Positions 5,263 through 64,000 are shown, counted from the stretch's first letter. The stretch: 64,000 nucleotides of DNA from Scenedesmus sp. PABB004 (GCA_014905635.1 JABVCE010000032.1:1-64000), one strand, 5' to 3'. Notes: generated by a model from the letters alone, not told the origin. Numbers and translations are program-made.

Positions 5263-5640
5263 CTGAGCGCTGGGCCGCGTCGGGGCCGAGCCGCCCGCCC
5301 GGTCACCGCCGCGCTGCGCCAGCAGCCGCGGCGTGCTATATACCCCCGCACCACCGCCGCCTGGGGCACGCGCAGCGCACCAGGGGCAGGCAGCCGGCGG
5401 CCCGCCGCCGCGCGGGGCAGCGCACGGGGTGCAGCGCGTGCTGCCGCGATGTGGCTCGGCCGCCGCCGCGTGCGCGTGGCAGGCGACGGGCAGGGCCTGC
5501 TGCTTGAGTTGTTGCCGCCGGAGCGGCGCTGCTGCTGCCCGCCGCGCTGGCGGCCTGTGCGCGCCGCCAGCGCTGCTGCTGCCCGCCGCTCAGCGCCGCG
5601 CAGCGAGCTGCGATGCGGTGAGCCGGGGCGCGCCCGGCGG
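5263..5640 (+). repeat. Dispersed ~350-400-bp unit 'R' copy 1 (ends in ATG-MWLGRRRVRVAGDxQGLLLE..PERRCCC)
   Basis: Alignable by eye to 15080-15365, 29921-30860 and 38445-39385. Confidence 0.85.
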
Positions 5641-5901
5641 CATGGCGGCGGCGGCGTGCTGTCGCCGGCGTGCGCCCACTGCGCTGGCGCCGGCGCAGTG
5701 CCGTTTGCGGAGGTCGTCGCGCTGCGCTGCCGCAGCTGTTCGTGCCGAGTACCACCACAAAATCATTCCCCCTCTCGCTTTCAGCGCCTCCAAGCGGCCA
5801 ACCGGGCAAGCGCCGGGCGCGCCTTGTTAAGTAACCCTTCCGAAACACTGCCGAAGAGTGAGCTTCGCACCGTGTTTCCGGCCGATCGCGCGACGCCGGG
5901 C

Positions 5902-31598: not shown

Positions 31599-34500
31599 AT
31601 GGGGATCTCCCGCTCCCAGCTGGCACTGGCGGGCGTGTTGGCGCTCGCCGCCCTCGGCGCCAGCGCCCGGGCGTCGGCGGCGCTGGCGGCGGACGGGCCC
31701 GGCGACACCGACGCAATCAACACCACCCCACGCGACTCCGCGGCCGCCACGGCCACCGCTGGTCACGGTGGCAAGCACGGCCACCATGACCGCGCTCGGC
31801 GCTCCCCGGCGCTGCGCTCGCCGGTCACGCTCTCGCCGGCGCCCGGCTCGGCCGTGCTGGAGGTGGAGCTGACGCTGCGCCAGGGAAGCGTGACGCTCGA
31901 CACGGTCTCGCCGGGGGAGGTGGGGAACTTCCTGCTGTTCGCGTACCGTGTCGTGAAGGGCGTGGCGGACGGCGGGCCGCTCGCGGACGAGGCGGGCGTG
32001 TACCCAGGCCCGACGCTCAAAGTGCAGCCCGGGCAGACGCTGGTCGTGCGCATCCAGAACGCGCTCTTCAACCTGACGATGCAAGACTACTCTGACCCGA
32101 GCTACACGCCGGCGGGCCAAGTCGTCCCGTGCGTGCGGGGGGGGGGGGGCATCAGGCACGGGTCGCTGGCAGCCAGCCCACGCGCGCGGCAGCAGGCGCG
32201 CGCTGCTGGCAGCCAGCCCACGCGCGCCCGCTGCCGCGCCCGCCGGCCGCGCGCAGTCTCTACCCCCCGGCTTTGACCTCTTCGCCCTACAACAACCACG
32301 TGCACGGGATCCACACGAGCCCGTCGGGGCAGTCCGACAACGTGTATCTGTCCATTCCCCCCGGCATGTCCAACACGTACACGTACTACATCCCCACGGA
32401 CCACCCGAGCGGCCTGTACTGGTACCACACGCACAGGCACATGTTGACGTCGCCGCAGACGTTCCGCGGCCTGGCCGGCATGCTCGTCATTGGCCGCGCC
32501 GACGGGTACATCCCCGCCGTGACGGAGAATAAGCTCCCGATCCGCGTCATGGCCATCCAGTACAACACCGTGTTTGACCGCGCCTGCGCGAGGGGGCGCC
32601 GCATCTTAAACAACCCGTACTGGAACTCGGGCATCAACACGTCCGTGGTGCCCGCGCCGGGGGAGCTGGCCGCGGGCACCTACCGCCCTCTGCTGACGCC
32701 CATCAACTTCCTCGACTCGGCCAAGGGCACGACGTTCATGACGGCGTGGTGGGCGGGGAACCTCAGCGTCAACAACAACCGCGGCAAGTTCCAGTGGATG
32801 CCGCAGTCGCTCCAGACGTTCACGGACGCCAAGGGCAACGTCGTGCAGCGCGCCCAGCCCAACGCCGACCCCAAGCTCAGGGACGTGCAGTTCACCATAA
32901 ACGGCCAGTTCCAGCCGACCGTCTATGACACACAGCGCGGCCAGACGGAGATCTGGGTCTTGGCCAACATGGCCGACGCGGCCTACGCCGTCGTGACGCT
33001 CACAGAGACGGCGACGGGGAACCACCCCGTCATTTCCATCGTGGGGCAAGACGGCAACCCGCGCGACGATGTTGGTGCCTCCTTTTTGGACGGGGGCCGG
33101 CGCTTGGTGCTGCCGCCCGCCACGCGCTACGCGATCGCCGTCACGATGCCGATGCAGGGCGACTTGGTGCTGGAGATGCCGCCGCTCCTAGTGAGCGAGT
33201 GGGCGCAGCTCAAGGGGCAGCTCAGCAACCTGGGCATCCTCTATGTCAACGACGGCACGGACAACCCCCCCGCGCAGCTCGGGAACATCTCCATTGCTGT
33301 GAACGTGGTCAACTACTTTGACGGCTTCTTCCTCACGCCCACGCAAGTCCTGCTCACGGCCAAGCCCAATGCAGCCCGCCCCCCTGTCCCGTCCGTCCCG
33401 TTCCTGCAAGGCCAGCCCACAAATGCGTACTCGAGCTTCTGCCAGACGGTCGGCAAGCCCGTCGCGGCCACGCGGAGGCTCCTCATTACCGGCGGCTTCA
33501 ATAACGAGCTCGCCAACCCTGAGGACCCCAACGCGTTCACGTACCAGTTCTCGGGAAACCAGTTCCCCAACATTCCACTTTTGCAGCCTCGATTGGACTC
33601 GATTGAGGAGTGGACGTTCGTAAACTACAACAACGACCAACACCCCATCCACATCCACATCAACGACTTCCAGGTCACGGAGATTGTGGACCCGTCGACC
33701 AACCCGCCCACACGATCGGGGCCATCAAACTACGGCCAAGATAACATCAACGTCCCCTACCCGAGCGCATCAAACGTGCCCGGCTCGGTGAGGGCCCTGC
33801 TTGCGCGTGTGACGCAGCAGCGCTGCCGCCGCTGGCGTTTGCGCTGACGCTGACTTTGATGCTGTATGCGTACGCTCGCGCGTCACGGCTGTGCGCGACG
33901 CAGGTTTCGCTGCGCACGTGCTTCAAGCAGTACACCGGGGCGTACGTCACCCATTGCCATCGCCTGAACCACGAGGACAACGGCCTAATGGCCATCATCA
34001 ACGTCATCCCGGCTCGCAGCTTTGTGGCGGTCGTGAGCCGTCGCGCTGCCAGCGGCCAAAACCAAACAGCGCGCGTTGTCGTCACCGTTATCAGCACGGG
34101 CGACGTCGGCGGCCCGCGCGACGTCGTCGTGGCCGACGACCTTGAGCCGTTTCCAGGCTACCAGGGCGACCTCGTCACAGCCATGGGCGACATTGACGGC
34201 GACGGCGTCTTTGACTTGGTTGTGGGCACCAAGTCGGACCGCCGCCCCCGCGTCGCGGCTTGGTCTGGGGCGTCTGACTTCACCAAGGCACTGGTGCAGC
34301 CCTTCTTCTTGCTGCCCCGCGCCAGCGCCAAGCCCGTGGTGCTCAGCCTTGCCGCGGGCGGATACGTCCTGGGCACGAACACGTCGGCCATTTCCAACGT
34401 CGTCATTGGCATGGAAGGGCTCGTGCGCGTCTACGACTTGCTCGCGAAGAAGGTGGTCTCGTCGTTCTCCCCGTTTGGGGTCAAGTACGTCGGCCCCGTC

Positions 34501-40121: not shown

Positions 40122-43100
40122 ATGGGGATCTCCCGCTCCCAGCTGGCACTGGCGGGCGTGTTGGCGCTCGCCGCCCTCGGCGCCAGCGCCCGGGCGTCGG
40201 CGGCGCTGGCGGCGGACGGGCCCGGCGACACCGACGCAATCAACACCACCCCACGCGACTCCGCGGCCGCCACGGCCACCGCTGGTCACGGTGGCAAGCA
40301 CGGCCACCATGACCGCGCTCGGCGCTCCCCGGCGCTGCGCTCGCCGGTCACGCTCTCGCCGGCGCCCGGCTCGGCCGTGCTGGAGGTGGAGCTGACGCTG
40401 CGCCAGGGAAGCGTGACGCTCGACACGGTCTCGCCGGGGGAGGTGGGGAACTTCCTGCTGTTCGCGTACCGTGTCGTGAAGGGCGTGGCGGACGGCGGGC
40501 CGCTCGCGGACGAGGCGGGCGTGTACCCAGGCCCGACGCTCAAAGTGCAGCCCGGGCAGACGCTGGTCGTGCGCATCCAGAACGCGCTCTTCAACCTGAC
40601 GATGCAAGACTACTCTGACCCGAGCTACACGCCGGCGGGCCAAGTCGTCCCGTGCGTGCGGGGGGGGGGGGGGCATCAGGCACGGGTCGCTGGCAGCCAG
40701 CCCACGCGCGCGGCAGCAGGCGCGCGCTGCTGGCAGCCAGCCCACGCGCGCCCGCTGCCGCGCCCGCCGGCCGCGCGCAGTCTCTACCCCCCGTCTTTGA
40801 CCTCTTCGCCCTACAACAACCACGTGCACGGGATCCACACGAGCCCGTCGGGGCAGTCCGACAACGTGTATCTGTCCATTCCCCCGGCATGTCCAACACG
40901 TACACGTACTACATCCCCACGGACCACCCGAGCGGCCTGTACTGGTACCACACGCACAGGCACATGTTGACGTCGCCGCAGACGTTCCGCGGCCTGGCCG
41001 GCATGCTCGTCATTGGCCGCGCCGACGGGTACATCCCCGCCGTGACGGAGAATAAGCTCCCGATCCGCGTCATGGCCATCCAGTACAACACCGTGTTTGA
41101 CCGCGCCTGCGCGAGGGGGCGCCGCATCTTAAACAACCCGTACTGGAACTCGGGCATCAACACGTCCGTGGTGCCCGCGCCGGGGGAGCTGGCCGCGGGC
41201 ACCTACCGCCCTCTGCTGACGCCCATCAACTTCCTCGACTCGGCCAAGGGCACGACGTTCATGACGGCGTGGTGGGCGGGGAACCTCAGCGTCAACAACA
41301 ACCGCGGCAAGTTCCAGTGGATGCCGCAGTCGCTCCAGACGTTCACGGACGCCAAGGGCAACGTCGTGCAGCGCGCCCAGCCCAACGCCGACCCCAAGCT
41401 CAGGGACGTGCAGTTCACCATAAACGGCCAGTTCCAGCCGACCGTCTATGACACACAGCGCGGCCAGACGGAGATCTGGGTCTTGGCCAACATGGCCGAC
41501 GCGGCCTACGCCGTCGTGACGCTCACAGAGACGGCGACGGGGAACCACCCCGTCATTTCCATCGTGGGGCAAGACGGCAACCCGCGCGACGATGTTGGTG
41601 CCTCCTTTTTGGACGGGGGCCGGCGCTTGGTGCTGCCGCCCGCCACGCGCTACGCGATCGCCGTCACGATGCCGATGCAGGGCGACTTGGTGCTGGAGAT
41701 GCCGCCGCTCCTAGTGAGCGAGTGGGCGCAGCTCAAGGGGCAGCTCAGCAACCTGGGCATCCTCTATGTCAACGACGGCACGGACAACCCCCCCGCGCAG
41801 CTCGGGAACATCTCCATTGCTGTGAACGTGGTCAACTACTTTGACGGCTTCTTCCTCACGCCCACGCAAGTCCTGCTCACGGCCAAGCCCAATGCAGCCC
41901 GCCCCCCTGTCCCGTCCGTCCCGTTCCTGCAAGGCCAGCCCACAAATGCGTACTCGAGCTTCTGCCAGACGGTCGGCAAGCCCGTCGCGGCCACGCGGAG
42001 GCTCCTCATTACCGGCGGCTTCAATAACGAGCTCGCCAACCCTGAGGACCCCAACGCGTTCACGTACCAGTTCTCGGGAAACCAGTTCCCCAACATTCCA
42101 CTTTTGCAGCCTCGATTGGACTCGATTGAGGAGTGGACGTTCGTAAACTACAACAACGACCAACACCCCATCCACATCCACATCAACGACTTCCAGGTCA
42201 CGGAGATTGTGGACCCGTCGACCAACCCGCCCACACGATCGGGGCCATCAAACTACGGCCAAGATAACATCAACGTCCCCTACCCGAGCGCATCAAACGT
42301 GCCCGGCTCGGTGAGGGCCCTGCTTGCGCGTGTGACGCAGCAGCGCTGCCGCCGCTGGCGTTTGCGCTGACGCTGACTTTGATGCTGTATGCGTACGCTC
42401 GCGCGTCACGGCTGTGCGCGACGCAGGTTTCGCTGCGCACGTGCTTCAAGCAGTACACCGGGGCGTACGTCACCCATTGCCATCGCCTGAACCACGAGGA
42501 CAACGGCCTAATGGCCATCATCAACGTCATCCCGGCTCGCAGCTTTGTGGCGGTCGTGAGCCGTCGCGCTGCCAGCGGCCAAAACCAAACAGCGCGCGTT
42601 GTCGTCACCGTTATCAGCACGGGCGACGTCGGCGGCCCGCGCGACGTCGTCGTGGCCGACGACCTTGAGCCGTTTCCAGGCTACCAGGGCGACCTCGTCA
42701 CAGCCATGGGCGACATTGACGGCGACGGCGTCTTTGACTTGGTTGTGGGCACCAAGTCGGACCGCCGCCCCCGCGTCGCGGCTTGGTCTGGGGCGTCTGA
42801 CTTCACCAAGGCACTGGTGCAGCCCTTCTTCTTGCTGCCCCGCGCCAGCGCCAAGCCCGTGGTGCTCAGCCTTGCCGCGGGCGGATACGTCCTGGGCACG
42901 AACACGTCGGCCATTTCCAACGTCGTCATTGGCATGGAAGGGCTCGTGCGCGTCTACGACTTGCTCGCGAAGAAGGTGGTCTCGTCGTTCTCCCCGTTTG
43001 GGGTCAAGTACGTCGGCCCCGTCTCTGTTGCCACGGGCCAAGTCACAGCGACCGGCCGCACAGGCATCGTCGCCGGGTCGGGGCAAGGGCTCGTCCAGGT

Positions 43101-53378: not shown

Positions 53379-54741
53379 TCATTTCAAGCCCATCCGCATT
53401 GAGGCTGTCGCAATGCCCAGTCTCAACAAGCCAGGCAGCTTGTCTTTTTCTTCTACAACGCCGTAGTACGTTGTTATGTGTGCCGCGTACAGCAGAATCT
53501 GCAGCTCTTTCACCTCGCCGCGCCTGCCAAAGACGATGGAGGAGGCGCCGTCACGCGCGAACAGCGAGTTGTAAGCGATTGTGCCGTGCTCTGACACGAC
53601 GACCGTCGCGCTGCGCACGGTCTCGATGGTGGCTTTGATCGTGAGCTGTGACGGGTCGATGCACGTGACCGGGACTTCTGGTGGCCCCAGCGCCTCTGCA
53701 GCACGTTTCACGTCCTCACAAAGCTGTGGCCACTGCGGTGCGGTGAACGCAGGGACCTGCAGTCGGCAACGCGGGGGGGGGGGGGGGTCAGGCCGCCCCG
53801 CGGGAGGGCAGCGTGCTCTTGCACGTGCAGCGTCGCACCTTCACGTTCACGACGATTGCATGCCGCCGCAGCGGTGACTCCGCGAGCCCCAAGCGCCGCA
53901 CCACACCCGTGCTCAGGTCTCGCAGGGTAGTCGCGCGCTGCAGGTCGACGCTGCGCAGGCTGAAGGCACTCGACTGCCCGACGACGAGCCTGTCCACACA
54001 CACTGAGGCGTTGGCCCACCCCGGGTCTGATGCGACGTCGATGGACGGCCGACCCAGCAAGAGCGGGTCCCACACACGGTGATTCTCCGCGCACCGCTCG
54101 TGCCGCCGCCGGCCGGTCATAGGGTCCATGTTTTCTATTGACCAGAAACCGTTCCACGCGCGGCAGCCATCATACAAGAGCTGCACGTCTGCGGCGCCGA
54201 CGCCGAACAGCCTTGCGGCGGCGAGGACAGGCAGCAGGACGTCAATCAACAGGTGCCCAAAGTTGTCGCTGTAGGTGTTTGTGGCATAGAAGAAGGTGGC
54301 ATTGTCCAGAAACGTGTGGGCGGCAGGCCGCCGCGCGTGCTCGACCGTCGGGCGCCAGGGCTTGTTGCCGGCGGCCGGGTGATCCAGGTAGCCAAGGTAC
54401 ACAAAGGGTTGCATGCTGCTGATGCGCTGCCTCTCCGGCGTGCTGGGATCCTCAAAAAAGGTGACGCCAGAGCTCCCATTGAAGCACACATTGCGGAGCA
54501 CGCACACGCGGAGCTCGGGCGACGTCGCCGGGGGGAATTTGTAAAGGACCTTCTGCTGCGACCAGCCGTCAAAGCTCTGCTGGCCGCCTATGCAATGGAA
54601 TGCACTGTAGGGCGCGTGTCGCGAGCTTGGCGTGGCCGCCGGGAGGACCTGAGTGGTGGAGGCGTGCTGGGGGGTGCCGCCGCGCCATGATAAAAGGGCC
54701 AGCGCGGGGATCATGAGCACAAGAGCCACAATTGCGCGCAT
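53379..54741 (-). CDS. Glycosyltransferase family 61-like (DUF563) type II membrane protein; intron 53757-53838
   Basis: N-terminal signal anchor MRAIVALVLMIPALALLSW. Motifs VCVLRNVCF, NFGHLLIDVLLPV, VCVDRLVVG and LTIKATIETVRSATVVVSEHGTIAYNSLFARDGASSI. Confidence 0.75.
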
Positions 54742-54829
54742 CGCAGCTCGCAGCTGGGGTCGCTGCCCGGCGCTGACGCCAGTCGACCCAACGCAGCCTG
54801 TGTGCTGCTAGCCCGCACGCTGTGCCGGA

Positions 54830-55360
54830 GGGAGTTGAAGATGCTCAAACTCCAGGCCGGCGCGCAGCGATAGATAAAGATAAAGATAAAGATAGTTACA
54901 CCACAGCGAGCTGCCGACGCACCCGGTGTGCCCGAAGAGCGCAGAGTTGGGAGGCGGGAAGGTGTCCAGCATGGCGGCGGTGTCGGGTCGATCCGAGCAA
55001 GCCGAGCGACAGCTGGGCCCCCACCGAGCTTGAGCGGCGGCTGGACATAACACGCTGCTACAGCCCGCGACGGTCGCGGCGCGACCTCGAGCGCACAGGC
55101 CGAGCTGGCGCTTCAGCGTCCACTCACGCAGCTGCACTGAAACGCTGCAGCGCAGCGGTCGCCCGCGCCGTCAGCCGCGCGCCACGGTCCCTCGGCCACC
55201 ACGCGGCCCGCCGCGCGAGCCAGGGTCGCCGCCGCGTCACGCACCCGTGCCGCAGCGCCTGCTGTCCCTGCGCCCGCCCTGCACAGCTGGAGCAGCAGCT
55301 GCTCGGTCGGACGCGCAGCAGGAGCGCGGCGCATCGGCGGTCGTCGCGCCGCGAGCAGCG
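54830..55360. promoter_or_regulatory. Diverged duplicate of 58370-58850 (5' end of SDR/TIM gene plus divergent intergenic region), now between GT61 and FAD oxidoreductase
   Basis: Long matching tracts, e.g. gctgccgacgcacccggtgtgcccgaagagcgcagagttgggaggcgggaagg and ctggacataacacgctgctacagccc. The duplication is seen directly; a promoter role is inferred. Confidence 0.7.
54871..54903 (-). mobile_element. 33-bp retro-type insertion with (TATCTT)n tail, 6-bp TSD cagcga
   Basis: TSD at 54865-54870 and 54904-54909. The empty site is at ~58410 (gcagcgagctgccg). Same core as 35201-35244. Confidence 0.85.
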
Positions 55361-55372
55361 CCCCCCAGCAGC

Positions 55373-56660
55373 ATGCGCATTGCGGTGATTGGCGGCGGCT
55401 GGTACGGTGAGCCGAGGCAGCGGTGGCGTGCCCGCCAGCAGTTTGCGGGGGCTTGCGGCCCGCGCCAGACCACGCACCGGCCGTTCCCGCCGCCGCAGGC
55501 TGCCACTTGGCGGCGGAGCTCATCCGCCTTGGGGAGGACGTCACGGTCCTGGAGAAGGGGCCGTGTCTGTTCGGTGGTTCGTCAGGCTTAAACCAGTTCC
55601 GGCTCCACCTGGGCTTCCACTACCCGCGCTCGAGCACGACGCGGCACCAGATCGTGGCCGCGCACGACCGGTTCGTCAAAAAATACCCAAACCTCTTCTT
55701 TCCTGTGACGACAAACGTGTACTGCATCTCCGCTGGCGACAGCATGCTCGACTTTCAGACCTACAAGACCATCATGCAGGTGTGAGCAAGGCGGGCGCCG
55801 CTGAGTGGTGCAGCAACTCGCCCTCTGCTGATGTGCTCACTCACTGCGTGCGCACCCGCCGCTCGCTGCAGCACGACTGCGCGGGTGTGGCGTTCGAGGA
55901 GGTGGACCCCGGCGCCATCGGCCTGTCCAACGTCGAGGGCGCGCTCGTGTGCCGCGAGGGCGCGCTGCTCGCGGACGAGCCCAAGCGCTTCTTCACGAGC
56001 CTCCTCCACAGCCGCGTGCGGTTTGGCTGCGAGGTCCGCAGCGTGCGCACGCTGCCGAGCAACGGCACCGACGCCGCCGGCGTGGACGTCGACGGCGAAC
56101 AGTTTGACTGGGCCGTCGATTGCACGTACGGACAGCTCGCAAACCAGCGCTGCGGGCTGTACTACGAGGCCTGCCTGACGTTAGTTTACAGGAGGCGGCA
56201 GAAGAACACTCACCACCTGAACCACGCCTTCACAGTCATGGACGGCCCCTTCACCAGCCTCTTCCCGTTTTTCGCTGATTACGCCGACGCCGTCGGCGAC
56301 ATCGGCCGGCTCCACACGCTCACGCACGTCACGCACACGCACATGGCGCGGTTCAAAACGTTTGCCGAGGCCCGCGCGTTTGCGGCTGCCTTCACCGACG
56401 CCGACGCCGAGCGGGCGCGGCCGCAGTTTGAGGCCGGCATTACGCACTACCTGCCCTCGTTCCCCCAGGATTACGAGTACCACTCCTACTTTGTGAGCTT
56501 CAAGACCAAGACGGCGGGTGGCGCGGACGCGCGGGAGACGGTGTGCGAGACGAGCGGCCGCGTCATCTCGGTCATGAGCGGCAAGGTCAACACCATCTTC
56601 CTGGCGGAGGACTACGTGCTCAACGCGATGGGCCTGCGCCCCGCGCCCACCCAGGCATGA
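55373..56660 (+). CDS. FAD-dependent oxidoreductase (DAO-like superfamily); introns 55407-55498 and 55780-55871
   Basis: MRIAVIGGGWYG|CHLA...VTVLEK...GSSGLNQFRLHLGFHYPRS, FDWAVDCTY, FTVMDGPFTSLFP, TLTHVTHT and VMSGKVNTIF. No signal peptide. Confidence 0.85.
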
Positions 56661-56774
56661 CTGGCAAGCGGGGACGAGCCGCGCCGAGCTGTCGGGGCTC
56701 AGCCCGTGCCCCAGCAGTTGAGAGATGGAGCGCGGCGGCAAACAACCGCACCGTCAGCGGCAGGGGACTTACAC

Positions 56775-58478
56775 TCACACTGCATAGCTCGACGCAAAGA
56801 CTGCCAGGGAGGCCGCCAGCTCCGGCAGCGACGAGCACACCATCTCCACAGACAGCAGCTTGTCGTAGCCAGCAGCGTCCAGCGCGGCCGCAAACCGTGC
56901 GTGGTCGGAGCGAGCCGGGGCGTCGGGCTTGGGCGCCGACAGCGGCGCCAGGAAGGGCTCCGAGACGTGCACGTGGCCGAGGACGTCGACGCAGTCCGCG
57001 ACCGCGGCGCCCGCGTCCTCGCCGGCGAGCGCCATGCACGCCGCGTCCAGGTGCACCCTCAGGCCGGGGTGCGCCACTCGCCGCACCAGCGCGGCGGCGT
57101 GCCGCGAGGTGGTGACAAAGTTGCAGCCGTACTCTGCGGCGTTGGGCTCGAGGCACAGCACGCAGCCCCGCTCCTGCGCATACGCCGCCAGCCCCGCAAA
57201 CGTGCCCGCAAAAATGTCGTCCGCCTCGGCAGCGCTCATGCCCTCCGGCACGCGCCGGTTCTTGGGCGCCCCAAACACGATCGGCACAGGTGCTCCCGGC
57301 CGCACCGCCGGTCGTAGCGCGCCCACGAGGTCGACGATCAGCTGCACGTGCCGCACCAGGCTGGCGCGCGCCTCGGGGCTGCCGAAGAGCACAAGGTCGG
57401 GCTTGTTGTAGAGAATGGCTTGCACGGACGAGATCTGCAGCCGCGCAGCCGCCAGCCTGCCGACCAGCCCCGCCACGAGCGCCTCGAGCTGCTGCCCGCC
57501 CTGCGCGTGCGCGGCCTCGAGCTCCTCCCAGGAAAAGAAGCGGGTCGGCGCGAGCTCGACGAGGCGCACGCCGGCCAGCTGCAGCGCGCCCGCCGCGCCG
57601 CTGTCGTCGGCCTCCTTCCACGCGATGCACGACACCGTGGTGCGGCGCGCGAGCCTGTGACGGGCGAGGAAGGCCCGGAACGCGGCCTCCACCGACGCCG
57701 CGCTCTGGCTGTACGCGCCCGCGCTGCTGCTCCCCAGCGCCCGCGCGTGCTTGGTGCACAGGTCGTACGCCGCGGCCGGGCCCGCGTGTCCCACCGGCCC
57801 GTCCGGCAGGAGGCCCGCGTCCGCCACGAGGCCCACCAGGCGCGGCGTCGCGACGGGCTCGGGGAAGAGGTTCACCTCGCGCAGCCCCAGCGCCAGCACG
57901 CGCTGCAGGTTGCGTGCGAGCGCCGAGGTGTCGTACCACTGGAACGACGTGTTGGTGTTGATGGCGGCCACGTTGTTGGCGTGCAGCAAGTCAAACACGT
58001 AGTTCTTCTTCAGGTGCAGCCCGAACAGCGCCGGCAGGCGCACGACGATGGCCTTGTCGCCGTAGCGGTCGCGCACGAAGCGCTCAAACAGGGCGCGGTG
58101 CCGGCCGTACGCGTGCAGCGCGTCGCCGTCGGCCGCCGCGCCGCCGCCGGGCGCGCCGTCCTCGTCGCGCCGGTCGTCGGTCGGGTGGTAGACGTCGATG
58201 GTCGAGATCAGCACAAAGCGCTCGCACTCGACGGAGCGCAGCACGTCCTGCAGCGACTGCACCGTGGCGAGGTCGCGCGCGGGCTCCTTGTTGGCCAGCC
58301 ACTTGGCCGCCGGCAGCGCCGCAAACACGACCAGGTCGAACGCCCGGCCCCGCGCATCGTCCACGTTCTGGGAGTTGAAGGTGTGCTCAAACTCCAGGCC
58401 GGCGGCTCGCAGCGAGCTGCCGACGCACCCGGTGTGCCCGAAGAGCGCAGAGTTGGGAGGCGGGAAGGCGTCCAGCAT
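56775..58478 (-). CDS. Intronless two-domain fusion: NAD(P)-binding epimerase/dehydratase (extended SDR-like) + xylose-isomerase-like TIM barrel (sugar epimerase/isomerase), 567 aa
   Basis: N-half: ALFGHTGCVG, AAKWLAN, FVLISTIDVY, YGRHR, VRLPALFG..LKKN. C-half: VELAPT, VFGAPKNR, LCLEPNAAEYGCNF, VHLD, HVHVSEP, LSVEM (E/D/H/E metal ligands). TGTAA lies just after the stop. Confidence 0.88.
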   Translation of the reverse strand: MLDAFPPPNSALFGHTGCVGSSLRAAGLEFEHTFNSQNVDDARGRAFDLVVFAALPAAKWLANKEPARDLATVQSLQDVLRSVECERFVLISTIDVYHPTDDRRDEDGAPGGGAAADGDALHAYGRHRALFERFVRDRYGDKAIVVRLPALFGLHLKKNYVFDLLHANNVAAINTNTSFQWYDTSALARNLQRVLALGLREVNLFPEPVATPRLVGLVADAGLLPDGPVGHAGPAAAYDLCTKHARALGSSSAGAYSQSAASVEAAFRAFLARHRLARRTTVSCIAWKEADDSGAAGALQLAGVRLVELAPTRFFSWEELEAAHAQGGQQLEALVAGLVGRLAAARLQISSVQAILYNKPDLVLFGSPEARASLVRHVQLIVDLVGALRPAVRPGAPVPIVFGAPKNRRVPEGMSAAEADDIFAGTFAGLAAYAQERGCVLCLEPNAAEYGCNFVTTSRHAAALVRRVAHPGLRVHLDAACMALAGEDAGAAVADCVDVLGHVHVSEPFLAPLSAPKPDAPARSDHARFAAALDAAGYDKLLSVEMVCSSLPELAASLAVFASSYAV

Positions 58479-58898
58479 GGCGGCGGTGTCGGGTCGATCC
58501 GAGCAAGCCGAGCGACAGCTGGGCCGCCACCCTTGAGCGGCGGCGGCTGGACATAACACGCTGCTACAGCCCTGCGACGTGGACGCCGCAGCAGTCTCTG
58601 CAGCATGCACGGACGCAGCTGCACTGAACCGCTTGCAGCACAGCCGTCATCCACGCCGCTCAGCCGCGCCGGCCTCGGGCACCACGCGGGCGCCGCAGTG
58701 TCACACACCGTGCCGCAGCGCCTGCTGCCCCTGCTGCCGCCCTACCCCACAGCTGGAGCAGCTGTTGCTCGCTGCCGCGCATCAGGAGCATTGTTCCTGC
58801 AGGGCCGCAGAGCGGCGCGTGCGCGGCGTCCGCCGCGAGCGCCGCGCGGCCTGCAAGCCGCAGCGCGACGGGCTGATGTCGACGCGCAGCACGGGCTG

Positions 58899-59873
58899 AT
58901 GTCGACGATTGCTCGAGGCGTGGGGGCTTGGGCAGTGGAGTTCTCCAGCGCAGTGCTCATGATATTTTTCAACAAGGTGCTGCTCTCAAACATGAGCTTT
59001 CGGTTCCCGGTCTCATTGACGGCGATGCACTTTGCGTGGACCGCGGTCGCCACGGCGGCGATGCAGCACTGTGGCGCCGCCGCTGGTCAGGGCGTGGTCG
59101 CTTTACCCCCGCTGCACGCCCTGTTGCTATTCGCCCTGCTCTCTACCACAGCCATCATCTTAAGCAATGCCTCACTCCTGCTTAATTCGGTTGCCTTCTA
59201 TCAGATAATGAAGCTCCCCACGCTCCCGTTTGTTGCGGCCGTGGAGTGGGTCGCGGGGACCAAGCAGTACGCTTGGCAGCACGCAGCGCTGTACGCGACC
59301 ATCCTGGCTGGCGTGTGGCTGACGATTGCGGGCGAGGTGCGCGCTAGCTGGACGGGCACCGCCGTGGCGATGGCATCCTTCATGTCTGCTGGCACTCACC
59401 AGTTTTTTTGCGGGCGACTGCAAGCGGCGTACTCGATGACGCCCAGCCGCCTGTTGGCGTTCATCTCGCCCATCAAAGCCATTGTGCTGTTTGCCTCGGG
59501 CCCCTTCCTTGACAAAGCGCTGTTCGGAGCCTGGCTGGGCGCGTACGCCTGGACGGGCGCGGCCGCGTCGCTGGTCGCGGGGACTTGCCTTCTCGCTGTG
59601 GTCTTGAACCTCGCGCAGTACACCGTCATCAGCCTGCTGGGCGCGGGCCCCTACCAGGCGTTCAGCCAGCTCAAGACGGCAGCGGTCGTCGTGCTCGGCT
59701 CTCTGGTGTTCCAGGGCGACGTGCGGGCGCAGCAGCTTGCAGGTACGGCGCTTGCGATCGCTGGCGTGCTGTCCCTGGCGCGCTTTGAGCGCCACCTGGA
59801 GCGTTTAAAGGAAACGGCGTTCATGGAGCTGCCCTCAAGCACGGAAGCCCAGCCCCCGCCACCAGCAAAGTAA
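58899..59873 (+). CDS. Nucleotide-sugar transporter (TPT/SLC35E family, plant UXT/URGT-like), intronless
   Basis: SAVLMIFFNKVLL...FRFPVSLTAMHF, LSNASLLLNSVAFYQIMKL and YQAFSQLKT, with about 10 hydrophobic segments. Confidence 0.88.
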   Translation: MSTIARGVGAWAVEFSSAVLMIFFNKVLLSNMSFRFPVSLTAMHFAWTAVATAAMQHCGAAAGQGVVALPPLHALLLFALLSTTAIILSNASLLLNSVAFYQIMKLPTLPFVAAVEWVAGTKQYAWQHAALYATILAGVWLTIAGEVRASWTGTAVAMASFMSAGTHQFFCGRLQAAYSMTPSRLLAFISPIKAIVLFASGPFLDKALFGAWLGAYAWTGAAASLVAGTCLLAVVLNLAQYTVISLLGAGPYQAFSQLKTAAVVVLGSLVFQGDVRAQQLAGTALAIAGVLSLARFERHLERLKETAFMELPSSTEAQPPPPAK

Positions 59874-60010
59874 CTGCGCCCTTCTGTGGGCGCGCCGCGA
59901 TCATCGCTGGCTCTTCGCCCCCGGGTGCGGCAGCCGCGCGCCGACAGCCGCCGCGTGGGCGCGTCACTGGCAAAGCTGCAAGCAGCCGTTGCTGACGTTA
60001 CATGCCGCCC

Positions 60011-61168
60011 TCATAGTCGGCCCTTCTTCGCGTCCGGGAAGAGGCTGTGCGCGAGCGCCTGCGACGCGACCGCGCCGCGGTACTCGCTCACGTACTGCTC
60101 GACCTCGGCCCACAACGGATCGCCCGGCTGCACTCCCAGCAGCGGCCGCAGCAGCTCCGCGAGGCTCTTCCACGCGCCCTCCTCGTGGCCCGGCCGCAGC
60201 ACATGGGCGTCGACAAACGCCGCCAGCGCCGCCTCGTCCCAGCTCCTGTGCTGCCAGCCGGAGCGGTCGATGCGGTCGGCGTGCGTCTGGCGCGGCGCCA
60301 GCTCGATCGCGCCCCGCACGCCAGCGTCGAGCTGGCTGATGCGGTACGACACCAGCCGCTGGTCCATGGACCACTGCGCGAACGAGAGTTCAACGGCTGA
60401 GGTGTAGTTGAACGCAACCGCGAGCTCAGCGTTGATGTGGCGCGCAAAGGCCTCGGACAGGCAGCCCGGGCCGGCCGAGACGTCGCAGATGCAGTCGTAC
60501 CGCATCGCCCTGCGCCACGCCCACACCGGCAGCGCGACCGTGGACATGGGGAACTCGCGGAAGGTCGTGTTGAACAGGTACGTCTCGCCGCAGCACAGCG
60601 CGTTGGTGATCTTGCCCATGCTGCCGTTGCCGCGCGGCAGGAACGTGGCGCCGCTCGCGACGGGCCAGATGTCCGCATCCGTGGTGACGAGCGTCGTGTT
60701 GGCGTCGCCGATGCCGCGCAGGCGGCCGTGCAGCCCGCACAGGCCGGCGACAAACGCGCGGCCGACCTGGGCGAGGGCGACATTGTTGAGCGCCCGCTGG
60801 TCGCTGTGGTCGACAAACAGCAGGTTTTCGGTGAAGTTCCAGCGAGCCAGGTAGCGCAGCATGGTGGACGTGGCGGCGTCCGTGCCCCAGGCGCGGCTGC
60901 CGGGCACGTCGTTCACGAGCAGCACGACCGGCTCGATGCGCTGCCGCCGCCGCCACACGAGCGCCGACAGTGGCACGAAGAACGCGTACAGCGGCGCCGA
61001 GCCCGTGGAGAGGACGACATACTCGGAGAAGGTCGGCCCCGGCGATGGTGGCGGGCTGCCGGCGGCGCGGCCGGCGCGCGGCGCCGCGGACAGCAGCCCG
61101 ACGCACGCCGCCGCCGCCGCCAGCGCCGCCGCCAGGGCCAGGCCGCGAAACAGGCGCGTTGGCCGCAT
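60011..61168 (-). CDS. Type II membrane protein with DxD motif; putative GT-A glycosyltransferase, intronless
   Basis: Signal anchor LALAAALAAAAACVGLLS, then YAFFVPLSALVW, AQVGR, LVTTDADIWPV (DxD), WSMDQRLVS, RIDRSGW and VDAH. TGTAA lies after the stop. Confidence 0.6.
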   Translation of the reverse strand: MRPTRLFRGLALAAALAAAAACVGLLSAAPRAGRAAGSPPPSPGPTFSEYVVLSTGSAPLYAFFVPLSALVWRRRQRIEPVVLLVNDVPGSRAWGTDAATSTMLRYLARWNFTENLLFVDHSDQRALNNVALAQVGRAFVAGLCGLHGRLRGIGDANTTLVTTDADIWPVASGATFLPRGNGSMGKITNALCCGETYLFNTTFREFPMSTVALPVWAWRRAMRYDCICDVSAGPGCLSEAFARHINAELAVAFNYTSAVELSFAQWSMDQRLVSYRISQLDAGVRGAIELAPRQTHADRIDRSGWQHRSWDEAALAAFVDAHVLRPGHEEGAWKSLAELLRPLLGVQPGDPLWAEVEQYVSEYRGAVASQALAHSLFPDAKKGRL

Positions 61169-61305
61169 GAGGAATGGGAAACAATGATGCGCAGCGCCGG
61201 CAGCGCGCTTGGACAATCTAACAAGGCTGTAGCGCGCACACGCTATTTGGTGGCCGAAGCACACCGCTTTGCCCTGCGGCAGCCCGCCCCTGCATCACAC
61301 CGACG

Positions 61306-62469
61306 ATGAGGCCCCCCCTGCTGCCGCCAGTTCTTGCAGCCCTGGTCGTGACCGGGGCGCTGCTGCTGCTGAGCGAGCTGCGCGCGGCCCCCCCATGCCG
61401 CGGCGCTGCCCAGCACTCCTCGCTCGGCAGCGGTCCCGGTGCCTCCGCCGCCGTGTCAACGGCCTCCCTGCACGGCAGCAGCTTGGGGCTGCTGACCATG
61501 CGGTCGTTGGAGCGGCCGTTCCTGCTGGTCACCGACGGCAGCACCACGGGCGCCCCGCCCGCGCCGCCGCGGGCCGATGGCGATGAGGCGCAGCAGGCGG
61601 TGCTCACGCAGCTTGAACTCGCCCGGCGCTGTGCCGAGGACGCGGACACGGTCGTGGTGGACGTGGGCGCGTTCCTGGGCGACTTCGGGCTGGCCGCGGC
61701 GGCGGCGGGGTGCCGCGTGTACATCTTCGAGGTGCGGCAGCTCGAGGCAGAGCTTGAGCCTGCCGCGCGTGGCGCCAGGCCCGCGCTTCAGCGCCCCGCG
61801 GCGCCTCCCCATGTGCCGCAGGTTCAGCCCCGCCAAGCGGCACTCATCCAGGCGTCGATCAACGTCAACGGCTTCGGCGAGCGCGTGACCCTGGTCAACA
61901 AGGCCGTCACCAACGCGTCAAACGCGCGCTTGACGTTTTCGGCCGCCGGGGGTCAGACGGCCAAGGCGGGCGGCGGCGGCGGCACAATAACTGTCGACAG
62001 CGTTGCCCTCGACGACCTCTTCCCCGCGCCTGCAAGAATATTCTTCCTGAAAATTGACACGGAAGGTTGGAGGCACGGCCGCACGCCGCGCCGGTGTTGG
62101 CACTGTTCTGACGCCGCCGCTGGCTCCCTCCCGCGCGCAGGGTTTGAGCTTGACGTCTTTGCAGGCGCGGCACGGCTCTTTCAGCAGCGGCGTGTCGACA
62201 ACGTGGTCTTTGAGTACACGGCGTTCTGGACCGACCGCGCTGACCAGCAGGCGCTTCTGCCCTTTGTAGAAGCTTTCCAGCCGAGAGCGCTGTACGCGCT
62301 CGACCGCACGGGGCCAACGGTGTACGGCCCGCTGGGTCCCCAGGACGTGCGGGGTTTCTGGAAGGCGCACAACGACCGGCACCTGCAAACTGACGTGTAC
62401 GCAACGTTCAGCGATGCGGACAGCCGGAAAGTGCGCGCGACGCCTTACACCCAGAGCGTAAACGCTTGA
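61306..62469 (+). CDS. FkbM-family SAM methyltransferase with signal anchor; probable introns 61732-61821 and 62066-62140
   Basis: VVVDVGAFLGDFGL, VYIFE|VQP, SINVNGF, SVALDDLF, FLKIDTE|GFELDVFAGA and VVFEY. Confidence 0.88.
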   Translation: MRPPLLPPVLAALVVTGALLLLSELRAAPPCRGAAQHSSLGSGPGASAAVSTASLHGSSLGLLTMRSLERPFLLVTDGSTTGAPPAPPRADGDEAQQAVLTQLELARRCAEDADTVVVDVGAFLGDFGLAAAAAGCRVYIFEVRQLEAELEPAARGARPALQRPAAPPHVPQVQPRQAALIQASINVNGFGERVTLVNKAVTNASNARLTFSAAGGQTAKAGGGGGTITVDSVALDDLFPAPARIFFLKIDTEGWRHGRTPRRCWHCSDAAAGSLPRAGFELDVFAGAARLFQQRRVDNVVFEYTAFWTDRADQQALLPFVEAFQPRALYALDRTGPTVYGPLGPQDVRGFWKAHNDRHLQTDVYATFSDADSRKVRATPYTQSVNA

Positions 62470-62611
62470 GCATCATCTTTCTGGTTCCCTGCAGCTCGAG
62501 CCACCACCGCCAAGCAGTCGAGGCGCCGGGCGCGGTGGCTGCATCGCGGCGGCAGGCCTCGCCTCTCGCTGCACCAGGAGCGCCGCTGTGCTGGCCAGCA
62601 GCCAGCAGCTA

Positions 62612-64000
62612 TCAGCAGGTGATGAACACGTCCTCCATGCCAAACTGCTCTTCCACAATAAACGCTCTCAACGCAGCGGGCGAGAGGGCAGGCGCGCTGT
62701 CGGGATCGCCCACCGTTGTCATTTGCTTGACCCTCTTGATGGTGCACTGGAGCTCCAGCAGCGCCGCAAACGTCTCGTGCGCCGCCGCGCGTGATATGAT
62801 GCCGTCGCGCTGCCACGTCACCGGCGCGACCTCGATCAGCAAGTGCCGCACGCGCTTGCTTCGGAGCATGCCCATGGCCGTCTTGAGGACGGACACCTCA
62901 AAGCCCTCCGTGTCTGCGACGGGCCCAGGCGCGCCGTCATGAGCGGCTCACGCGGCAAGCAGGGCTTGCTTGCTGCCCGGCCTTCCCTGGCGCACCGATT
63001 TTGATCATGAAGATACTGATGCCGTCAAACACCGCATCCAGCGACACGGGGTGGGTGGTGACGTTGGTGCGCGGCCCCGGCACGGCCGTGGCGTCCAGTC
63101 CCGTCTTGACGCTGAACGAGCCACGACAGAGCGGAGGGACGGCCATGACCATCGGCGTCGGGTCGGCTGCAATGGCCTCGGGGATGATGCCAAACCGGCC
63201 CTCAACGATGGCTCGAATGTGCCCGTTGAGGCAGAGGTTGCGCTGGATTATGTTGATGCACAGCGGCTGGGGCTCGAAAAACACGACCTCGCAACCGTAG
63301 GACGCGGCGAGCACGCCTGGCGGGGAAGGGGGGGGGGGGGGAGATCGTGTGTGTGTATCTGGGGGGGGGCACCACGTGTTCACGAGGGTCGCTGTCGCTG
63401 ATTCTCACCGTAAAACCCCGCATTGGCGCCCGCGTCGACGAACAGCCCGCCGTGGCAGCCCTGCCCGAAAATTCGACTGAACACTGCGTGGACGTGTCGC
63501 TCGCTGTTGACTATCCAGTTCATGATGTCATCAGAGTCCTGTTGGCCGGGGTTCAGCGCAGCGACAGGCGGCGGCGCTGAGCAGCAGCAGCAGCAGGAGC
63601 AGCAGGAGCGGGGCGCCGCTGCCACTCGCGCAGCGCGGCGCGGCCCGCACCTGCGTCAGGTGGATGCGCTCGCCGCCCGGTTCCGAATACAGCAGCGTCT
63701 GGGCCAGCTTGCCCTGCTCAAACAGGCGGGAGCAGTCTGCGCGTGCTGCAAAGCGCTGCGAGAGGCCAGGCTGCGCTGTGACAGCAGACGCCGGCGCCGG
63801 GGCCGCCGCCGAAGCTGACGCCGCGGCACCATGTCCGGCCAGCAGGGCTTGTTCGATGCCGCGCTGGTGGACCGCGATGTGCACAAGCAAACACCCAAAC
63901 ACCGCCGCCAGCACGACCGTGGCAGCGGTCGACGCCCAGCTGCTTCGCGGCGGGCGCGCGGTGACAGCGGGTCGCCCCGCGCGCTTGCGGGCCTGGCGCA
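62612..64000 (-). CDS. Second FkbM-family methyltransferase with signal anchor, multi-exon; start probably 1 nt beyond window
   Basis: (M)RQARKR...VVLAAVFGCLLVHIAV, LFVDAGANAGFYG|VLAASYGCEVVFFEPQP, VSLDAVF, MIKI|DTEGFEVSVL and LLIEV. Confidence 0.85.

Follow-up and report, generated by a model that had tools for sequence, protein, structure and literature searches.

Seven clustered glycan-related genes around a putative sugar-remodelling module in the green alga Scenedesmus sp. PABB004

Do seven neighbouring genes of a green alga, all plausibly concerned with glycans, work in one pathway, or do they merely share an address? This question is raised by 64,000 nucleotides of Scenedesmus sp. PABB004 (GCA_014905635.1, JABVCE010000032.1:1-64000; hereafter the window), in which seven consecutive genes, G1 to G7, extend from 53379 to beyond 64000. 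Two of them are central to our answer: G2, predicted to encode a flavin adenine dinucleotide (FAD)-dependent oxidoreductase, and G3, predicted to fuse a short-chain dehydrogenase/reductase (SDR) to a triosephosphate isomerase (TIM) barrel. We conclude firmly that this core is a widespread, unstudied functional unit. The cluster as a whole is real and unusually coherent, and on balance we lean towards reading all seven genes as one functional glycan-decoration cluster built on the conserved sugar-remodelling module.

The G2-G3 module and its predicted chemistry

G2 and G3 keep company far beyond this alga. Scans with the G3 family alignment located 58 foreign loci in viral contigs, 15 in metagenome contigs and at least 548 in prokaryote genomes; the prokaryote figures given here rest on the best 80 of these at least 548 loci, which span many phyla, and flank homologues were detected by tblastn (E ≤ 1e-3) in the resulting 153 foreign loci. 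In 122 of the 153, the G3 homologue is flanked by one of G2, mostly directly adjacent (71 of the 80 prokaryote loci, 40 of the 58 viral ones, and 11 of the 15 from metagenomes), so the synteny in bacteria and giant viruses to which a preliminary description of the locus had looked is found for this pair. The same domains also meet in single proteins. An SDR-TIM-FAD fusion of 793 amino acids (P0017) comes from a 60-kb contig, a second protein (P0016) joins the C-terminal part of a G2-like FAD domain to an SDR, and a giant-virus contig carries a GT2_4/GT92 domain joined to an FAD domain (L003:12746-14452). This conserved adjacency, together with the fusion proteins, places a functional link between G2 and G3 beyond reasonable doubt.

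The architecture of the module differs between groups. SDR and TIM are separate neighbouring genes in 79 of the 80 prokaryote loci; they are fused in 22 of 25 viral and 8 of 12 metagenome loci having both parts. Relatives of G3 include eight proteins at 51-60% identity, among them those of the green alga Raphidocelis subcapitata (Rsub_13335) and the fungus Hyaloraphidium curvatum, one at 41%, and a few distant ones; the metagenome scan, directed at close algal kin, returned distant copies only (25-38% identity). Many of the viral loci are giant-virus metagenome-assembled genomes (MAGs), and their GC content ranges from 19 to 49%. A set of near-identical viral contigs (L033-L044 and L057) has the SDR-like part only (G3 residues 11-215, 34% identity); most of these have a G2-like gene ~1.5 kb away, and the TIM part went undetected at the threshold used. 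On plasmids, RefSeq-style annotation names the module proteins "hypothetical", "TIM barrel protein" or "sugar phosphate isomerase/epimerase".

G2 (55373..56660, plus strand; 367 amino acids) has three exons (55373-55406, 55499-55779, and 55872-56660) separated by two introns of 92 nt each, with splice junctions consistent with the alignment to homologues. Exon 2 scores 20.8 bits against Pfam DAO (PF01266), below the cut-off of 27.9, and a match to NAD_binding_8 is also below cut-off; three bacterial G2 homologues exceed the DAO cut-off at 93.0, 65.3 and 63.4 bits. The best matches among solved structures (3dme, L-alpha-glycerophosphate oxidase) fall over the FAD-binding N-terminus. The dinucleotide-binding GxGxxG motif is present as IGGGWYG in exons 1-2, and SS..NQFRLHLGFHYPR aligns with all homologues, forming the family's conserved S..NQ.R.H.G.HY stretch. 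G2 is hence predicted from its sequence to be a cytosolic flavoenzyme of the DAO/glycerophosphate-oxidase type.

G3 (56775..58478, minus strand; 567 amino acids) is intronless and consists of an SDR domain (residues 1 to ~275) and a TIM barrel (~285-567). The barrel matches Pfam AP_endonuc_2 (PF01261) with 51.7 bits against a cut-off of 31.1. Compared with the PDB, its profile finds D-tagatose, D-psicose and L-ribulose 3-epimerases (E ~1e-10) as well as 6wn6, named a 3-keto-D-glucoside 4-epimerase (E 9e-9). Within the G3 segments CLEPN, HLDAAC, HVHVSE and SVEM, identical residues align with the E, D, H and E of D-tagatose 3-epimerase 7dz5, which we take to be the metal and catalytic ligands of ketose 3-epimerases. 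E444, D478 and H504 are invariant, and E545 is nearly so.

The SDR domain is harder to place by sequence. It scores 19.6 bits against Pfam Epimerase, below the cut-off of 20.9, and a PDB profile search matched it only very weakly to dTDP-4-dehydrorhamnose reductase (E 0.26). An AlphaFold model built from 55 sequences reached a mean confidence (pLDDT) of 92.4, and Foldseek matched it to dTDP-4-dehydrorhamnose reductases (RmlD), MoeE5, UDP-galactose 4-epimerases (GalE), RMD and GMER at template modelling (TM) scores of 0.65-0.73. RmlD structures are the best fold match (5u9c, 1vl0, and 1kbz; TM-scores 0.65-0.71). The features kept are the GxxGxxG motif, with G14, G17 and G20 invariant in the 55 sequences, and likewise Ser92 and Tyr124; the departures from RmlD are the weak sequence match, an arginine in place of a lysine, and the fusion to a TIM barrel. 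The model thus supports a designation as an RmlD-like extended SDR. Taken together, G2 and the two domains of G3 fit a sequence in which oxidation is followed by epimerisation beside the keto group and then by reduction. This three-step logic had been proposed at the outset, and a DAO-type G2, an epimerase-like barrel with all four residues, and an RmlD-like SDR fold now support it.

Gene order, gene families and a duplicated promoter

The seven genes were modelled from stop-to-stop open reading frames (ORFs), Pfam and NCBIfam scans, and splice-site modelling, with exons compared with homologues. GC content is 60-81% across the window and 67-72% in the 54-64 kb stretch. The models and family calls confirm seven consecutive glycan-related genes in strict alternation (- + - + - + -), an order for which we calculate a chance probability of 1/64. 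Coding sequences are separated by 631 bp between G1 and G2 (head-to-head), 114 bp between G2 and G3 (tail-to-tail), and 420 bp between G3 and G4 (head-to-head), and by 137, 137 and 142 bp at the G4/G5, G5/G6 and G6/G7 junctions. Four gaps that had been put at ~115-140 bp therefore measure 114-142 bp, and the other two junctions are larger. Introns number 0-3 per gene and are all short. The upstream ClpB-like gene, by comparison, appears intron-dense, since it falls into several short coding blocks in different frames, and the earlier contrast with intron-rich neighbours holds for this multi-exon gene. The models of G3 and G5 are identical to proteins in the protein database.

A Kyte-Doolittle scan found N-terminal hydrophobic segments in G1 (residues 1-22), G5 (5-30), G6 (3-28), and the partial model of G7 (20-46), and none in G2 or G3. 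The anchors noted earlier on the GT61 protein, the DxD protein and both FkbM enzymes, and their absence from the FAD enzyme and the SDR/TIM fusion, were thus recovered. GC content at third codon positions (GC3) is 0.78-0.93 in the seven genes. With the introns, this marks them as resident nuclear genes and not contamination or a recent insertion, and a recent foreign origin of the cluster was rejected on the same grounds.

G1 (53379..54741, minus strand; 426 amino acids) consists of exons 53839-54741 and 53379-53756 around a single intron of 82 nt (53757-53838). Exon 2 matches the glycosyltransferase (GT) family GT61 (PF04577) with 30.4 bits against a cut-off of 27, over profile positions 79-135 only; exon 1 has no Pfam GT61 match. 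The N-terminally anchored product is assigned to GT61 on this match; an enzyme of that family would be expected to transfer xylose, arabinofuranose or GlcNAc from a UDP-sugar. G4 (58899..59873, plus strand; 324 amino acids, no intron) matches TPT (PF03151) with 54.2 bits against 30 over profile positions 11-288 of 291. It has several hydrophobic segments and no sequence match among solved structures, and its sequence predicts a transporter of the TPT/nucleotide-sugar-transporter family, in the drug/metabolite transporter (DMT) superfamily.

G5 (60011..61168, minus strand; 385 amino acids, no intron) belongs to a family without a name. An exhaustive search found 257 representative relatives. 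Scans of 40 members returned no glycosyltransferase and no shared Pfam domain (a stray PSD13_N match, E 0.0048, occurred in 1 of the 40), and the G5 profile had no significant match in the PDB, the best (E 0.26) being to unrelated proteins. Its AlphaFold 2 model (pLDDT 88.7), on the other hand, retrieved the retaining GT-A enzymes WbbM, glycogenin, LgtC and UGGT (GT8/GT24-type) with Foldseek at E ~1e-6, with a TM-score of 0.37 by query length, and D164 and D166 of its DxD motif are invariant. The DxD protein, as it was first called, thus models as a GT-A enzyme, and G5 is best called a putative anchored GT-A glycosyltransferase of an unnamed family. Members of this family occur at nine loci in viral contigs (21-29% identity), none of them with the module.

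The last two genes are predicted to encode anchored FkbM-type methyltransferases. G6 (61306..62469, plus strand) exceeds the Pfam threshold for FkbM (PF05050; 36.1 bits against 22.7) and falls just under that of TIGR01444 (36.8 against 37.7). It has between 0 and 2 introns; the candidates, which are uncertain, are in-frame, stop-free stretches of 90 and 75 nt, and the product has 332 amino acids if both inserts are introns. G7 (62612..64000, minus strand; at least 366 amino acids) continues at its 5' end beyond the window edge and has three introns of 112, 92 and 82 nt. Its FkbM assignment comes from a weak NCBIfam match to TIGR01444 only (17.5 bits, E 0.004), and its identity to G6 is 34% (E 3e-16), which makes the two paralogues.

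A repeat search and alignment revealed that a segment of about 450-500 nt occurs twice in the cluster. One copy (58373..58795) contains the genuine G3 start with the ~35 codons at the head of the gene, all of the divergent intergenic region between G3 and G4, and the G4 leader. The other (54830..55330) is placed between G1 and G2; it reproduces the divergent promoter of G3 and G4 and holds a dead G3 start codon and first codons, broken by a hexanucleotide microsatellite of the (CTTTAT)n type. A core of 122 nt (54904-55025 versus 58410-58531) matches at 98%, and there is no third copy of the segment in the window. Since the breakpoint falls within the G3 coding sequence, the copy at 55 kb is the derived one. 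Through this duplication one bidirectional promoter serves G1/G2 as well as G3/G4, two of the cluster's three divergent pairs, an arrangement that would provide for their co-regulation. As a candidate shared element, a motif common to the G5/G6 promoter and the duplicated promoter was rejected; only 9-10-mers of chance size were found.

Two features of these promoter regions concern possible upstream reading frames. Upstream of G1, the dead first exon copied from G3 (54808-54970, minus strand) keeps its ATG and an open frame of ~54 codons that ends before the G1 start, and it would be an upstream ORF if G1 transcripts start like those of G3. Directly before G4, GGGCTGATGTCGACG occurs twice, 23 nt apart (58860-58905); of the two ATGs, the first starts a tiny upstream ORF (MSTRSTG*) in another frame, and the second is the G4 start.

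At the 3' ends, TTACA stands 2 and 9 nt past the stop codons of G3 and G5 (56769-56773 and 59998-60002). On the minus strand this reads TGTAA, which we take to be the usual green-algal poly(A) signal. No TGTAA for G2, G4 or G6 lies inside the tail-to-tail gaps of 114-142 bp, so the 3' ends of these genes probably overlap their convergent neighbours. G homopolymers of ~17, 14 and 9 nt (53772-53788, 63330-63343, and 63362-63370) within the predicted introns of G1 and G7 may be assembly errors or a regulatory structure.

The other 53 kb of the window hold unrelated genes (DAG kinase, TBCC, WD40, two multicopper oxidases, and the ClpB-like gene), and no glycan-related gene was found among the ORFs scanned there. 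Two uninterrupted ORFs of 583 codons, ~8.5 kb apart (32096-33844 and 40619-42367, both on the plus strand), each have Cu-oxidase_2 and Cu-oxidase_3 domains and resemble tandem intron-poor paralogues within an otherwise intron-rich region.

Company of the module elsewhere and the proposed pathway

We examined what surrounds the module in other genomes. Bacterial operons recurrently have the order (GtrA-like)-FAD-GT2-SDR-TIM-GT2, in which the GT2 between FAD and SDR has two C-terminal transmembrane helices and is GtrB/ArnC-like; Pfam-less proteins with 8-16 hydrophobic segments adjoin the module. On an Azospirillum plasmid an SDR gene annotated as hypothetical is followed by TIM barrel, GT2, FAD oxidoreductase and GT, with GT61, GT9, GT2, two GDP-mannose dehydratases, an ABC transporter and three S-adenosylmethionine (SAM) methyltransferases, the last without FkbM annotation, nearby. 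A Psychrobacter plasmid of 10.8 kb (pA22P4) has little beyond SDR, TIM, a small multidrug resistance (SMR) transporter, FAD, a GtrB-like GT2, a second GT2 and a protein with seven transmembrane segments. Its GtrB/ArnC-like GT2 occupies one frame at 5410-6403, where no gene is listed, and ends in C-terminal hydrophobic helices; with it, the plasmid carries a seemingly complete mobile glycan-decoration cassette around the module. Given the GtrA and SMR genes of these operons, a transporter of the DMT/SMR/GtrA type is a recurrent companion of the module and a parallel to G4. Judged from this context, the bacterial module probably acts on an undecaprenyl-phosphate sugar, which would then be flipped and used outside the cytoplasm.

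These settings bear on the substrate of the algal enzymes. The same seven genes might handle a lipid-linked sugar, such as a dolichyl-phosphate hexose or pentose at the cytosolic face of the endoplasmic reticulum (ER), with G4 flipping or transporting something else and the lumenal enzymes using a lipid donor. The interleaving of the bacterial module with GtrB/ArnC-like GT2, GtrA or SMR, and polytopic proteins with 7-16 transmembrane segments favours such a substrate, as do, in PMC11127046, an SDR epimerase that converts undecaprenyl-phosphate ribofuranose to xylofuranose and DprE1/DprE2, which act on a decaprenyl-phosphate sugar. We nevertheless regard it as possible rather than probable. The window holds no gene of the GT2/dolichyl-phosphate mannose synthase (DPMS) type and none like GT-C, the nearest SDR folds are all enzymes of nucleoside diphosphate (NDP) sugars, and G4 falls in the nucleotide-sugar/triose-phosphate transporter family. 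GT61 and GT-A DxD folds, moreover, use nucleotide sugars. Of the supposedly complete pathway first proposed, then, the chemistry is supported and the nucleotide-sugar substrate is conjectural; the bacterial GtrA/GtrB-like settings point to a polyprenyl-phosphate-linked sugar.

In giant-virus-like loci the module is flanked by a wealth of glycosyltransferases. Among 30 such loci, GT61 occurs in 9 and FkbM in 6 within ~5-6 kb of the module, counts that stand without a background frequency; further neighbours are WcbI, GT2/GT92, GT10, GT11, and small EamA/SMR-like ORFs. Viral identity is marked by a capsid gene of nucleocytoplasmic large DNA viruses (NCLDV) in L027 and a B-family polymerase in L060. 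Since GT61 and FkbM recur beside the module elsewhere, their grouping with it is not peculiar to this window. A close kinship of G1, G6 and G7 to these module-flanking genes was considered and rejected; the relation is at the family level only, with profile E values against flanking family members of 2.7e-4 for G1 and 7.5e-9 for G6. On another giant-virus contig, two small ORFs (L016:5690-6025 and L016:14922-15278) have sub-threshold matches to the RuBisCO small subunit (E 2e-5 and 6e-5).

Could the cluster then be the worn-down remnant of an integrated giant-virus glycosylation island? Two trees, one made by FastTree from 162 rows of the SDR domain and one a quick IQ-TREE tree based on 62 rows of both domains, unite the eukaryote copies in one clade and the virus-like copies in another (SH-like approximate likelihood ratio test, SH-aLRT, 99 for each). 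In the free IQ-TREE search, the eukaryote clade falls within Pseudomonadota-like bacteria (a set of 30, SH-aLRT 99). A tree that holds the eukaryote and virus copies together is, on the other hand, 7.6 log-likelihood units better and is not rejected by the approximately unbiased (AU) test (p-AU 0.62), so the free tree and the AU test disagree on the direction of transfer. Base composition differs strongly between the tree groups. Identity is 30-48% to bacteria and 24-33% to most full-length (fused-type) viral copies, and a few viral contigs reach 36-40% over the best segment. The SDR-TIM fusion, typical of the viral loci and found in 1 of 80 prokaryote loci, argues for a virus link, and the higher bacterial identity argues the opposite. 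The single fused prokaryote locus (L084), on a contig of a Sulfurovaceae MAG, groups with the viral clade in both trees and may be a viral contig binned with a bacterium. The shared company of GT61 and FkbM also speaks for a viral island, yet G1, G6 and G7 are not close to the viral genes, GC3 is host-like, spliceosomal introns are present, and the 25 ORFs scanned elsewhere in the window yielded no viral hallmark gene. We consider such a remnant very unlikely. In either case, the acquisition of the module is old.

Several observations weigh against a single seven-gene pathway. First, in 55 sequences an invariant Arg128 replaces the lysine of the canonical YxxxK motif of SDRs, so the reductase activity of the G3 N-terminal domain is not assured. 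Second, the bacterial contexts suggest a lipid-linked substrate, which by this analogy would fit poorly with a nucleotide-sugar transporter. Third, giant-virus glycosylation regions in general often contain GT61 and FkbM, and the 30 giant-virus-like loci include several that are closely related to one another. Fourth, no homologue of G1, G4, G5, G6 or G7 was found in the 153 foreign loci, so that the recurrence of GT61 and FkbM holds at the family level only, and the membership of G4 and G5 has no support from outside the window.

The last of these points would be expected if the functional unit were confined to G2 and G3, left over from a bacterial operon, and the other five were ordinary secretory-pathway genes brought near by chance or compact packing. 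Outside support exists for the G2-G3 pair only: G4 and G5 lack a counterpart in any foreign locus, those of G1, G6 and G7 match by family, and glycosyltransferase and methyltransferase genes are numerous in algal genomes. Chance, on the other hand, would have to account for seven glycan-related genes side by side where the ORFs scanned in the other 53 kb include none, for strict alternation with gaps of 114-142 bp, for one bidirectional promoter copied to serve both G1/G2 and G3/G4, and for a module that in viruses and bacteria, too, repeatedly has GT61, FkbM and small DMT-type transporters next to it. We therefore judge a chance neighbourhood to be unlikely, although it is a good deal less so than a viral remnant.

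Returning to a single glycan-decoration cluster, we suggest the following pathway. In the cytosol, G2 would oxidise a secondary hydroxyl of a phosphate-activated sugar, either NDP-linked or polyprenyl/dolichyl-phosphate-linked, to a ketone. The TIM half of G3, of the metal-dependent ketose-3-epimerase type, would invert the carbon beside the keto group, and its SDR half would reduce the ketone with NAD(P)H to yield a rare epimer of a common sugar. G4 would carry the activated product into the lumen of the ER or Golgi, where the anchored enzymes G1 (GT61) and G5 (GT-A) would attach it or build its acceptor, and the anchored G6 and G7 (FkbM) would O-methylate the glycan. The duplicated bidirectional promoter of G1/G2 and G3/G4 may coordinate expression. 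In this scheme we infer how the reactions are ordered, which sugar and carrier are involved, how the product is transported, what accepts it and what is methylated, as well as what G4 and G5 do and that the genes are co-expressed. By position and family, the locus shows the three or more adjacent non-homologous genes of one pathway that characterise a eukaryotic metabolic cluster, and that the genes share a pathway we infer from the contexts of the module elsewhere. The company of GT61, methyltransferases and small transporters, together with the duplicated promoter, lends the wider pathway reading plausible support.

Relation to known systems and significance

The closest precedent for the chemistry is the interconversion of gulosides and glucosides by Escherichia coli YcjQ, YcjR and YcjS, which dehydrogenate a hydroxyl, use a xylose-isomerase-like TIM barrel to epimerise the carbon next to it, and reduce the product. 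The three-step logic is the same, and the TIM profile of G3 matches 6wn6, the structure of YcjR, the 3-keto-D-glucoside 4-epimerase. The redox partners differ, however: those of YcjQRS are NAD enzymes of the Gfo/Idh/MocA type, whereas the algal module pairs a DAO-type flavoenzyme with an RmlD-like SDR. YcjQRS is also catabolic, and the algal module lies among glycosyltransferases.

A second comparison is with DprE1/DprE2 and the GtrA-like Rv3789. As described in two papers, an FAD oxidase and an SDR reductase convert decaprenyl-phosphoryl-ribose to arabinose via a keto intermediate (PMC11194591, PMC11127046). The inversion of a carrier-linked sugar by FAD and SDR enzymes is shared, and bacterial relatives of G2 and G3 keep company with GtrA. 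DprE1 is of the FAD_binding_4/vanillyl-alcohol-oxidase type, unlike the DAO-type G2; DprE2 is a classical SDR, unlike the extended SDR of G3, and the DprE system has no TIM-barrel epimerase.

A third is the three-component GtrA/GtrB/GtrC-like (GT136) machinery of periplasmic glycosylation, in which auxiliary epimerases diversify a lipid-linked sugar (Kelly et al. 2024, PMC11127046). The bacterial loci of the module agree with this concept, having a GtrB-like GT2, a candidate flippase (GtrA or SMR) and polytopic proteins around it. The epimerase of that paper is instead a single GalE-like SDR (ORF13), and a term search of that text found no FAD, oxidoreductase or xylose isomerase. In the window, none of a GtrA-like flippase, a GtrB-like GT2 and a polytopic GT-C is present.

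The glycosylation clusters of giant viruses (Mimiviridae and chloroviruses) resemble the locus in that many giant-virus contigs hold the module among glycosyltransferases, methyltransferases and sugar-nucleotide enzymes; the copy in the window differs in being a nuclear, intron-bearing algal locus. A term search of a 2022 review of giant-virus glycans (PMC9614988) found no xylose isomerase, TIM barrel, GT61 or FkbM, so the module is not among the viral pathways described there. With plant and fungal metabolic gene clusters the locus shares the adjacency of several non-homologous genes of one presumed pathway, here with a duplicated bidirectional promoter. Known eukaryotic metabolic gene clusters mostly make secondary metabolites, and we know of no glycan-decoration cluster in a green alga among them.

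O-methylated N-glycans are a hallmark of green microalgae. A 2025 review of microalgal N-glycosylation covers O-methylation and GT61, and a term search of it did not find the word "methyltransferase". A full-text search of the open literature found no description of the module. From these negative results, both the module and the algal methyltransferases look undescribed within the open literature.

A broader proposal is more speculative, and we put it forward as a tentative and rather doubtful one. The FAD oxidase, extended SDR and TIM epimerase may together be a cross-domain cassette, so far undescribed, for making a rare epimer of a sugar on a phosphate-linked carrier, used in Gtr-like decoration of bacterial surface glycans and in giant-virus glycans, and captured by a few eukaryotes. 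The alga would have built a true cluster around it, wired by a duplicated bidirectional promoter, and the two Golgi-anchored FkbM proteins would be the so-far unidentified O-methyltransferases of microalgae. Candidate products of the cassette are a hexose of the gulo, allo or talo type or an unusual pentose.

What is at stake extends beyond one alga. The module occurs in at least 548 prokaryote loci, dozens of giant-virus contigs and a few eukaryotes and has no assigned product; knowing which sugar it makes would close a gap common to the glycobiology of bacteria, viruses and algae. According to PMC12507850, algal glycan decorations affect microalgae as hosts for biologics. G6 and G7 are concrete candidates for algal glycan O-methyltransferases, and the duplicated bidirectional promoter suggests one way in which a eukaryotic gene cluster may acquire co-regulation.

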